A stretch of 64,000 bases of DNA, from NCBI GenBank assembly GCA_049322915.1, contig JBMOPW010000007.1, forward strand, positions 32,001 through 96,000, written 5' to 3'. Positions 37,362 through 39,610 of the stretch are shown piece by piece. The notes under the pieces were generated by a model that worked only from the letters and a program-made list of their open reading frames with translations, was not told the origin of the DNA and did no database searches. This DNA comes from Candidatus Zhuqueibacterota bacterium (GTDB taxonomy: Bacteria > Zhuqueibacterota > Zhuqueibacteria > Thermofontimicrobiales > Thermofontimicrobiaceae). Numbering within the stretch: position 1 is the first letter of the stretch; each line of letters begins with the position of its first letter. The position numbers and the translations under genes are program-made.

Positions 37362-38795
37362 CTAAATATTCAACACCGACTCAAGACTTGCTCTGAATTG
37401 GTTTTCATCTTCGTTGTTGTAAAACTGTACGCCAACCAAGCGGTACTTTTTGTCTTCAAGCGTCAGCAATTTGGTTTCAAACTCTGATTTGATTGTATTG
37501 AGAAAATTCAGTTTCCACGGCTCGGCTTTTTGCAGTATCTTTGCTTTTGGCTCGATGAAAAGCTGGTAAGTGAGTAGCCTGCCGCTTTTCTCTCGCAGGA
37601 ACAAAACAAAGTCTGGCTGGAAGGCTTGACCATTGGCATAGTTGTAGATTGCAAAATGCCCTTCGTTGCGCAGAAGATAGATATGCTCGTATTGCGCTTG
37701 TAGTTTTTGCATGTGTCTGTCCAGCATACGCACAAAGGCTTTTTCTTCGCTCGTTCCGTAGATGGTGTTGAAGGCAAACCAATCTTTGTCGGAGACGAAA
37801 TGCTCAAACTGCGTGTCGTCTGCGGCGCGAGGGTTTTTGGCGTCGAATTTTAGCGCCTTGTCTTTGAAGATTTCATGCACCCAATTGCGTCTGAAGTCTC
37901 GCGTGCCTTCGTAGTCGGTGATTTGCTGGCGGATTTCGGCTTCGATTTGACTCATCAGGCCCGACACGGCGGCGAGTTTTTCAGAGCGGTTGTCGTCCAG
38001 CCAGTACATATTGCCCTGAAAGGTGATTTCCAGCCCGCCGAGAAAATCGTCCGATGCGATAAAGTCGCGAATGGAGGCCAGATGGGGAAAATAGCGTTTG
38101 AGTGAGGCAAAGGTAAAGAACGGGTTGCGCGCGATGGCAGATTGAACGATGTTGCGCTCGATGTCTCGCACCTTTACGTCCTGACGGGTTTCGTCTTCCA
38201 CCACCCAGCCTTTTTTCCCGCGCGAAGCGTCCAGCACGACGGTCGCGCCGCCGTGACCCGTGGCGATGACGTGGAGTTTTTGAATCGTGGTGAAGCAGAT
38301 ATTGATGTCGCTGGGGTTGACCGCTTCAAAGTTCTCGACAGGCGTCACGCGCACGCGGCGGCCTGCCCTGAGCGGAGCCGAAGGGTTGGCAATGTAAATA
38401 TCCTGCCTGTCCTGAGCGTAGCCGAAGGAATTGAACAGGTATTTGATGCTGCCGGGATTGAGGAAGTTGTCTTTGGTCTTTTCGATGATATTGGTGGAAT
38501 TAACAAAGAACAGGAAATTGCAATAGCCCTGCTCGTAAAGATAAAGAATCAAGCCCGCCATGATGAGCGTCTTGCCGCTGCCCGTCGCCATGTTGAACAG
38601 AAAATGCAGGGGATAGGTTTTGTCGGGAAAATGGTTTTTGTAACAATGGAAAAAGCGCGCAAAGGCATCCACCTGATAGGGACGCAGTTCGTATTTGGAG
38701 TTGAGATTTTGTGCGACACTGTCGGAGACTTCCGTTTTGAGAAAGCCCATGCTGGACGCCGCGTCAAGACGTTCGTAGAGAAACTGTTCGATCAT
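37362..38795 (-). pseudogene. Type III restriction endonuclease Res subunit with internal deletion of the helicase core
   Basis: LRPYQ and FNMATGSGKT (motif I) and C-terminal FQPDF..FIEPK nuclease motif present. No DEAH or later helicase motifs; 477 aa only. Confidence 0.8.
38362..38429. repeat. Two 24-bp palindromic repeat units inserted in frame within res
   Basis: CCTGCCCTGAGCGGAGCCGAAGGG (38362-38385) and CCTGTCCTGAGCGTAGCCGAAGGA (38406-38429), 21/24 identical. Confidence 0.8.
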
Positions 38796-38799
38796 GGCG

Positions 38800-39375
38800 T
38801 TACTCTGCCTCCCGCAAGGCGCGTTCCAGCAGGTCGTTCACTCGGAGTTCGCCCGCCCACTTCCGCAGGTAGTCCAGTTCGAGTTCGCCGGCGCGGGTTT
38901 TCAATACACCAAGGATATCGCGCCATTGACGCTCGGAGACTTCGCCGCCCAGGCGATAACATTCCAGTTTTGCCAGAACAATATCTTCGGGACTGACCAC
39001 ATACACACTTTGTTCGGGATCAGCAGCAATGACCAACGTTCTGCGCCGTTCGAATTGCAATGCGTCGAAGGCGCGCAGTTTGCTGATGAAAATATCCACC
39101 TTGAAGGCGGTTTCATAATGGATCAGGTTGAAACTGCTGTGATGAGCGATGGCGTCGCGCATCATTTCATCGTCGGCGTAAAATTCTTTTGAGAGCGCGG
39201 CGACCAATGGCTGGACGTGTTTCACTTTCATATCCGCCACAATATCCACATCCAGCGTGGACCGCATAACGCCATGCAGGGAACTTGCCAGCGAACCACC
39301 CACTGCGTAGGGGATGCCGATCTGTTCAAGCGTTTGCGTGACGAGCAATGTAATCCGTGTGACTTCACCTTGCAT
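38800..39375 (-). CDS. Nucleotidyltransferase-fold protein (GS..DxD)
   Basis: IPYAVGGSLASSLHGVMRSTLDVDIV, KVDIF, SPEDIVLAKL, SERQWRD, LDYLRKWA. Confidence 0.75.
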   Translation of the reverse strand: MQGEVTRITLLVTQTLEQIGIPYAVGGSLASSLHGVMRSTLDVDIVADMKVKHVQPLVAALSKEFYADDEMMRDAIAHHSSFNLIHYETAFKVDIFISKLRAFDALQFERRRTLVIAADPEQSVYVVSPEDIVLAKLECYRLGGEVSERQWRDILGVLKTRAGELELDYLRKWAGELRVNDLLERALREAE

Positions 39376-39610
39376 GTTTGTACACCTTTTCAGCCAATTC
39401 CGCGCCGAGTAACATTTCTGCCAGCATGCTGCGGAGTTGTTCGGGCCTCGCTTTGGGATGGCGCTGTCGAATATCGCCAAGCGCCAGCGCCTTGATGGTC
39501 TCGTTCAGGCTGTCCACCATAGCCATCTTTTTCCACGATGGCATGCGTCGAATCAATTCGATTTGCAGGGCTTCCATTTTGGGGTGGGTATCGGAATAGA
39601 GCGCAGTCAT
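39365..39610 (-). CDS. Small hypothetical protein, partner of the downstream NTase
   Basis: 81 aa (SDTHPKMEALQIELIRRMP...GDIRQRHP); overlaps the mod stop (ATGA) and the NTase start. Confidence 0.7.
   Translation of the reverse strand: MTALYSDTHPKMEALQIELIRRMPSWKKMAMVDSLNETIKALALGDIRQRHPKARPEQLRSMLAEMLLGAELAEKVYKHAR

Follow-up and report, generated by a model that had tools for sequence, protein, structure and literature searches.

Two in-frame 24-nt units in a decayed type III restriction gene: probable minimal copies of a GIY-YIG-associated hairpin family

Introduction

The palindromic elements of Rickettsia (RPE), as reportedly described by Ogata et al. in 2000, are ~100–150 bp long, lie in frame in protein-coding genes, and are translated with them. 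The SDR of Nostoc, reportedly described by Elhai et al. in 2008 (Genome Res 18:1484), are said to be 21–27 nt long, to form a hairpin with compensatory changes, and to show self-nested insertions; we know of no enzyme linked to them.

Other short hairpin repeats are tied to a gene of their own. REP/REPIN elements (PMC3116915, PMC3333891) are short hairpins with a conserved 5′ tetranucleotide that occur as inverted doublets, leave no target duplication, are extragenic, and bracket a single-copy gene for a RAYT Y1 transposase. According to the 2025 description of the Ssn system, SsnA is a 94-aa single-domain GIY-YIG enzyme; it cleaves single-stranded DNA next to oriented hairpin repeats, and these SRM repeats (NTS/dRS3 in Neisseria) flank the gene of the enzyme in many phyla (Chenal 2025, PMC11893778). 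Chenal et al. (Nat Commun 2025) liken the gene with its flanking repeats to an insertion sequence, and leave the role of the Ssn nucleases outside Neisseria and the mobility of the repeats as questions (PMC11893778).

Here, we analyzed a 64-kb stretch of DNA from a Candidatus Zhuqueibacterota bacterium (hereafter, the window), in which a sequence-only reading had marked two near-identical 24-bp palindromic elements inserted in frame in a restriction gene, and had proposed a minimal mobile element of unknown mobiliser.

Results

Two 24-nt units in a restriction subunit gene

The two units (A and B; Table 1) share one orientation, are identical at 21/24 bases, and follow the formula 5′-CCTG YCCT GAGCGNAGCCGA AGGR-3′, although the edge of unit A may shift by one G (38361–38384). 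Within the Res open reading frame (ORF), on the minus strand, unit A is translated as PSAPLRAG and unit B as SFGYAQDR, in two different phases, as had been noted at the outset. The accompanying remark that neither phase contains a stop is true and unremarkable, given that 5/6 frames of the unit are open, as judged from its sequence. The term "palindromic" applies only weakly, to a short stem (YCCT/AGGR, 4–5 bp) enclosing a 12-nt loop, and the predicted DNA folding of the units (-1.2 and -1.9 kcal/mol) is no better than that of shuffles.

Table 1. Features of the restriction–modification remnant in the window and of the GIY-YIG cassette elsewhere in the same genome (prefix C7, contig coordinates)
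Feature	Position	Strand	Details
Type III restriction subunit (res) remnant, 477 aa	37362..38795	-	Pfam ResIII over first 200 residues
Unit A	38362..38385	+	CCTGCCCTGAGCGGAGCCGAAGGG; tag CCTG 38362-38365, stem CCCT 38366-38369, stem AGGG 38382-38385
Unit A 12-nt loop	38370-38381	+	GAGCGGAGCCGA
Unit B	38406..38429	+	CCTGTCCTGAGCGTAGCCGAAGGA; tag CCTG 38406-38409, stem TCCT 38410-38413, stem AGGA 38426-38429
Unit B loop	38414-38425	+	GAGCGTAGCCGA
Partner DNA methylase (mod) remnant, C-terminal 195 aa	39607..40194	-	
Hairpin/GIY-YIG cassette of the window genome	C7:449953-450555		
GIY-YIG-only ORF, 118 aa	C7:450145-450498		Bracketed by hairpins

A scan of the window with a 23-mer at ≤3 mismatches matched the two units only, compared to 0.00 matches in 100 dinucleotide shuffles, which rules out a chance origin and bears out the earlier statement that the window holds no other copy. 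Allowing ≤4 mismatches, units A and B were likewise the only matches in the whole 6.25-Mb genome. An Rfam search of the element returned no family (sub-threshold miRNA noise only), and in the literature we found no description of a 24-nt element of this kind, nor of its 15–17-nt strings.

A decayed restriction–modification island

The host ORF, called a coding sequence at the outset, is a decayed gene. An in-frame internal deletion, equivalent to residues 159–554 of the full-length homologue P0002, has removed helicase motifs II–VI, including DEAH (junction KLH|VIATG), and mod is cut down to its last 195 aa, showing that the restriction–modification (R-M) system as a whole has decayed. Between the mod and res remnants (window 38800-39480, minus strand) lies an ORF with a DUF6036 nucleotidyltransferase match, which may represent a small toxin-antitoxin-like insertion. 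A sequence search for a solved homologue of the window Res returned none.

The GC content drops over the island (36.9–40.5 kb), and the res gene was not found in 13/13 other genomes of the family, including a same-genus genome (94% complete). Given the decay of res and mod and their absence from relatives, the data support the units being passengers in a dead gene that arrived with the R-M island, as the sequence-only reading had suspected. In the window genome, 7/7 copies of the exact loop with a stem of ≥4 bp also map to a pair of type III R-M loci, both on one contig; a further exact loop with a 3-bp stem occurs at C19:77295. The same-genus genome (G129) has 15 copies, all intergenic and none of them present in the window's genome; its intergenic DNA is unalignable and its genes are ~75–80% identical, making it unsuited to a base-level comparison of empty sites.

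Filled and empty sites among Res homologues

Of 8000 proteins scored in a search of longer proteins only, 6485 were relatives of Res, and the best 120 (853–892 aa) were aligned. The site of unit B (site 1) is empty in 119/120 of these best full-length homologues and that of unit A (site 2) in 116/120; at site 2, 3/120 carry seven residues unrelated to the unit (PLKGTFS/G). These empty sites, which had been proposed as a check, rule out that the residues are ancestral in Res. Only P0001 among the 120, an 884-aa protein from a Candidatus Brocadiia MAG (locus L006), holds both units, plus a third elsewhere in the protein.

At the codon level, the DNA of filled and empty alleles differs by exactly 24 nt with zero target duplication, consistent with what had been read from the window alone. 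The junctions are ATCCTG^ATTGAA at site 1 and GCGGCG(G)^TTGGC at site 2, where one G is ambiguous, and GCGGAA^ACGGTC at a third site, where the unit lies in reverse orientation. In total, the 24-nt unit was seen at five other places in Res proteins, in both orientations. The translated 24-mer appears as an xRSFDFAQD insert in nine homologues, and the opposite orientation as PALSG[AV]EG, also in nine, at a point of that loop separated from the first by 9 nt; jointly, these two points are filled in 18/120 homologues. The forms PALSAAEG, PSTALRAS, and RALGEFEG were each found at one further Res site, and L013 retains a 12-nt leftover at the reverse-orientation place.

The insert sites are indel-prone in the Res alignment. 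In L029, the site-3 loop (RYFPF...KFRRKF) holds a 33-nt perfect palindrome (TLKVSETFRV) unrelated to the 24-mer, and the same loop carries 11–12-residue inserts of the SLRGQAEGLSY type, with P0120, P0028, P0038, P0042, P0081, P0095, P0100, and P0112 listed for its unrelated inserts. The site-3 loop is a hotspot for small palindromes, and the presence of unrelated ones indicates that part of the clustering reflects insertion tolerance.

Res gene tree and allele flanks

Trees were built with the insert columns removed. The window Res belongs to a group of 11 with 99% support, in which all other members lack inserts at sites 1 and 2, and P0001 is placed outside this group; forcing the two together cost 53.9 log-likelihood units (AU p = 0.0075; 40 of 121 rows, quick LG+G4 tree). 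The site-3 reverse insert (nine rows) requires 5–7 changes across trees (seven on a FastTree of 121 rows), and the forward insert three on the same FastTree.

The 21-nt spacer between the units differs at five positions between the window and L006, compared to only two between the window and the empty allele L018, which argues that the shared sites do not derive from a recently exchanged patch. At site 3, the filled allele L062 most resembles empty alleles in its flanks (0.87), and the filled L016 much less (0.74), a weak comparison based on just two usable alleles at fixed offsets. Independent hits, old recombination, and precise loss are each possible explanations for the sites shared by the window Res and P0001.

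A longer hairpin family in the phylum

Each unit begins with a 5′ tag of 4 nt (CCTG in the window), followed by a stem of 4 bp that closes an invariant loop of 12 nt, GAGCGNAGYCGA. The core of the element occurs in 94/167 genomes of the phylum (a tally that takes in the unpublished genomes G163 and G167) at 1 to ~80 copies each, with ~0 matches for a reversed control. Its usual form in the phylum is an intergenic hairpin of ~30 nt with the invariant loop GAGCGNAGTCGA and variable, compensated stems of 7–10 bp, found as singletons and as inverted doublets; in G124 and G142, the doublets are 44 bp apart and often at contig ends. In a set of 104 distinct copies, Watson–Crick pairs were found at stem positions 3, 4, and 7 in 94, 86, and 67% of cases, compared to 61, 40, and 42% with shuffled partners. 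The sequence GCGNAGC is a classic, very stable DNA mini-hairpin.

The 24-mer in metagenomes, unrelated genes, and viruses

An exact scan of metagenome contigs found the 24-mer in at least 125 stretches, from which 80 loci were taken; these gave 81 distinct instances, each examined with 20 nt of flank. Beyond positions -3 and +1, sequence information falls to ~0, with G at -1 in 72/81 and A at -2 in 57/81 instances. Positions 5 and 24 covary (CG 47, TA 19, TG 12, CA 3; Fisher p = 8e-8, n = 81), and the T.G wobbles (12/81) occur on the plus strand only. On the 3′ side, nothing pairs with the conserved 5′ tag. Given that host genes hold the 24-mer in either orientation, these strand-restricted wobbles fit a structure of the DNA strand better than one of the mRNA. 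Flanks able to pair with each other over ≥6 bp enclose 10/81 units, compared to 1.4% of mismatched controls. A tandem copy was noted in L159 and nested copies in L185 and L133.

The 24-mer is read in five frames (PALSxxEG, CPERSRR, PFxxAQGR, PSxxLRA, and LRLRSGQ). Spanning ORFs of ≥250 aa numbered 35, of which 25 were tested and 10 had Pfam matches, among them a glycosyltransferase and metagenomic RecJ, peptidase S58, NuoL, and ArgRS, the last four with the unit in frame. An alignment of this RecJ to the window genome's own RecJ shows an exact 8-residue gap beside the DHH motif. The 18-nt core was also found in at least 132 stretches of viral contigs, where the copies mostly have a stem of only 4–5 bp plus the 5′ tag (CCTG 19, GTCA 8, TTCG 6). 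The database search thus places the 24-mer in unrelated genes, many genomes, and viral contigs, and together with the empty sites, the exact length, and the other sites and orientations in Res, it upholds the proposal of a discrete inserted element of eight codons; the comparisons further suggest that the 24-nt unit is mobile.

Several loci showed additional context. Seven (L118, L119, L122, L151, L155, L182, and L192) share longer common flanks, GGGCACGGCTTCAGAG ... TGCCG, which may represent a composite repeat or a favoured target. In L140 (63-86), the stretch immediately 3′ of the 24-mer looks like the T-arm and acceptor end of a tRNA; a tRNA was rejected here, with ARAGORN finding none with or without the unit. 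In a Brocadiia genome (G001), the five non-res copies (L249-L253) are intergenic and each nested in a CCCCCTT...AAGGGGG palindrome.

Association with a small GIY-YIG nuclease gene

The sole domain of the 118-aa ORF of the window genome is GIY-YIG (PF01541, 5.7e-21); among solved chains, it is closest to the UPF0213 proteins 1YWL and 1ZG2 (~4e-13), and an NCBIfam search of the protein returned nothing. A small GIY-YIG homologue is present in 119/167 genomes of the phylum. Taking the best 30 matches and leaving out L113, same-loop hairpins were found ≤300 bp from the gene at 14/29 GIY-YIG loci, compared to 0/29 for a reversed-loop control. The typical layout has one hairpin ~40 nt upstream of the gene and one ~40 nt downstream, inverted. 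Among the matches listed, the closest homologue (G127, 82% identical) also lies between mod and res, and the next (G020, 66% identical) is placed elsewhere.

The gene of the window genome sits, outside the window, in a second type III R-M locus (L083, G000:C7:447371-453115), in the spacer between mod and res, where an inverted pair of hairpins, present as direct repeats, brackets it and a hairpin encodes its last residues. The mod ORF of this locus contains an in-frame inverted pair of repeats (C7:449250-449310; L083:2751-2811). One is a degenerate copy of 24 nt, translated as VFDFAHTD, and the other a 28-nt hairpin whose stem has 8 bp, translated as GHVERSRNMT. In Brocadiia, a small GIY-YIG gene on a 724-bp contig (L239, G001:C18) is flanked by a different hairpin type, GTCATTCTGAGCGAAGCGAAGAATC; in two of the flanking copies, the loop contains a nested piece resembling the reversed 24-mer.

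The search for a co-occurring nuclease or transposase, suggested with the original observation, was therefore positive for GIY-YIG and negative in two other respects: Y1-transposase (PF01797) loci in G124, G142, G013, G014, and G015 have a hairpin within ~1.5 kb in 0/15 cases, and the window itself has no nuclease gene, the nearest being 380 kb away. The mobiliser, initially given as unknown, is thereby narrowed to a candidate, a GIY-YIG nuclease whose gene is flanked by same-loop hairpins as in Ssn/SRM, and which would mobilise the repeats.

Discussion

We consider it probable (roughly 0.7) that the two 24-mers represent a widespread GIY-YIG-associated hairpin family in minimal, solitary form, entered res as 24-nt insertions, and belong to a family whose spread an Ssn-like nuclease may drive. 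The data establish the insertion, the boundaries and recurrence of the unit, the pairing of its stem, and the association of the loop family with GIY-YIG genes. The units would have entered res in an earlier host, as discrete 24-nt insertions with no target duplication, and would have been translated as 8-residue loops, tolerated at indel-prone sites because 24 nt corresponds to 8 codons and 5/6 frames are open. The res/mod island would then have reached the window genome by horizontal transfer and decayed there. The hairpin presumably acts on one strand, in single-stranded DNA, and a trans-acting Ssn-like nuclease may cut at or near the 5′ tag, so driving the spread. Several points count against this reading. 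The published SRM string matches none of these copies, the solved proteins nearest to the local GIY-YIG belong to UPF0213, the nuclease gene nearest to the window is 380 kb away, the computed fold of the 24-mer is weak, and we saw neither a mobility event nor an insertion polymorphism between near-identical strains. GIY-YIG enzymes hydrolyse DNA, and we know of none with strand-transfer activity; and G124, with 76 hairpins, lacks a close nuclease homologue, having only a weak small PF01541 match in a locus with no hairpin.

A bolder form of this reading, which we regard as unlikely, takes the 24-nt unit to be a complete Ssn-type GIY-YIG substrate that is itself mobile and among the smallest known, undergoing excision and re-insertion as single-stranded DNA, with no target duplication, with a preference for exposed loops and certain sites, and precise removal. 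It would account for the same exact sites being filled in non-sister res genes with empty nearest relatives, and, if true, would amount to a new transposition route that combines a hydrolytic nuclease with host repair. The same pattern bears on a reading without transposition, in which rare founding events were followed by spread of the units among res and other homologous alleles through homologous recombination or short-tract gene conversion, possibly helped by nuclease cutting of the empty allele, as in homing. That the window Res and P0001 share both sites without being sisters (AU p = 0.0075), that the site-3 reverse insert needs 5–7 tree changes, and that the res family has clearly been exchanged between phyla all speak for such exchange, but the spacer between the units is nearer to the empty L018 than to L006 (two versus five differences), the flanks of the filled L062 resemble empty alleles (0.87) more than the filled L016 (0.74), and recombination cannot account for the unit in unrelated genes and in intergenic hairpin loops; we therefore find this explanation doubtful as well.

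Movement by a Y1 (HUH) transposase of the RAYT or IS200-IS605 type, in place of a GIY-YIG enzyme, would make these REP-like elements. The tetranucleotide tag with a hairpin, the lack of target duplication, and the inverted doublets 44 bp apart in high-copy genomes resemble REP/REPIN (PMC3116915, PMC3333891), but with hairpins at 0/15 Y1_Tnp loci in five high-copy genomes compared to 14/29 GIY-YIG loci, we judge it improbable. More improbable still is retention of the inserts for a host function, whether as a useful 8-residue loop or as a gene-regulating mRNA hairpin. The unit copies are identical between the window and L006 at 44/48 bases, compared to 397/477 for the surrounding gene, and of the four differences, two fall on the free loop base and the other two on opposite sides of a single stem pair. 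However, the excess of identity is small, the window units lie in a dead gene, one DNA sequence is read in five frames to give unrelated peptides, and both orientations occur in host genes, such that the pairing strand is only sometimes in the mRNA.

Returning to GIY-YIG-associated hairpins that entered res as insertions, the res family offers natural filled and empty sites at single-base resolution, which fix the unit at 24 nt, and the availability of such sites in both orientations and in reused loops makes both the mobility of the unit and the role of the nuclease directly testable. The units also explain odd 8-residue insertions (PALSxxEG, SFGxAQDR, PSxxLRA, and others) in proteins of many phyla and viruses, which can mislead annotation and alignment. 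As the window units show, very small selfish DNA can ride within genes.

Comparison with known systems

Like the RPE, the units are palindromic repeats that lie in frame in genes, but at 24 nt, they are far below the ~100–150 bp of RPE. With the Nostoc SDR, they share a very small size, a compensated hairpin, and self-nesting; they differ in phylum and in sequence.

The likeness to REP/REPIN (PMC3116915, PMC3333891) extends to the tag with a hairpin, the inverted doublets, the lack of target duplication, and a bracketed single-copy enzyme gene. Those repeats are extragenic and bracket a Y1 gene, in contrast to units lying in frame in res, RecJ, peptidase S58, NuoL, and ArgRS, and to the Y1 loci here, of which 0/15 have a hairpin.

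With Ssn/SRM, as described in PMC11893778, the family shares oriented hairpins with a non-palindromic 5′ part (NTS starts with CGTCA, and the long forms here with GTCA/TTCA), hundreds of copies in some genomes, and repeats on both sides of a GIY-YIG-only gene of ~95–120 aa. This flanking arrangement was found for the long-stem hairpins with the same loop, and the window 24-mers are not beside such a gene. The published SRM string, HGTCWYN(0-2)YYVSBRHN(0-5)WNVSBRGN(0-2)RNCYNB, had no match in the 64-kb window, in 14 GIY-YIG loci, or in any of 86 24-mers with flanks, and the 12-nt loop does not occur in the supplementary files of PMC11893778 that were searched (12 of 14); the text of that paper makes no mention of in-frame or intragenic copies. 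The family here differs from Ssn/SRM in its 12-nt loop and variable stems, and the window units in being cut to a 4-bp stem with a CCTG tag and in lying inside genes. In kind, then, the system is already known, from Ssn/SRM and from in-frame palindromic elements, and the most plausible reading of the units is a minimal variant of GIY-YIG-associated hairpins that genes tolerate; what they add is the 24-nt form with its exact boundaries, the repeated use of the same loops in restriction genes, and the spread over phyla and viruses.
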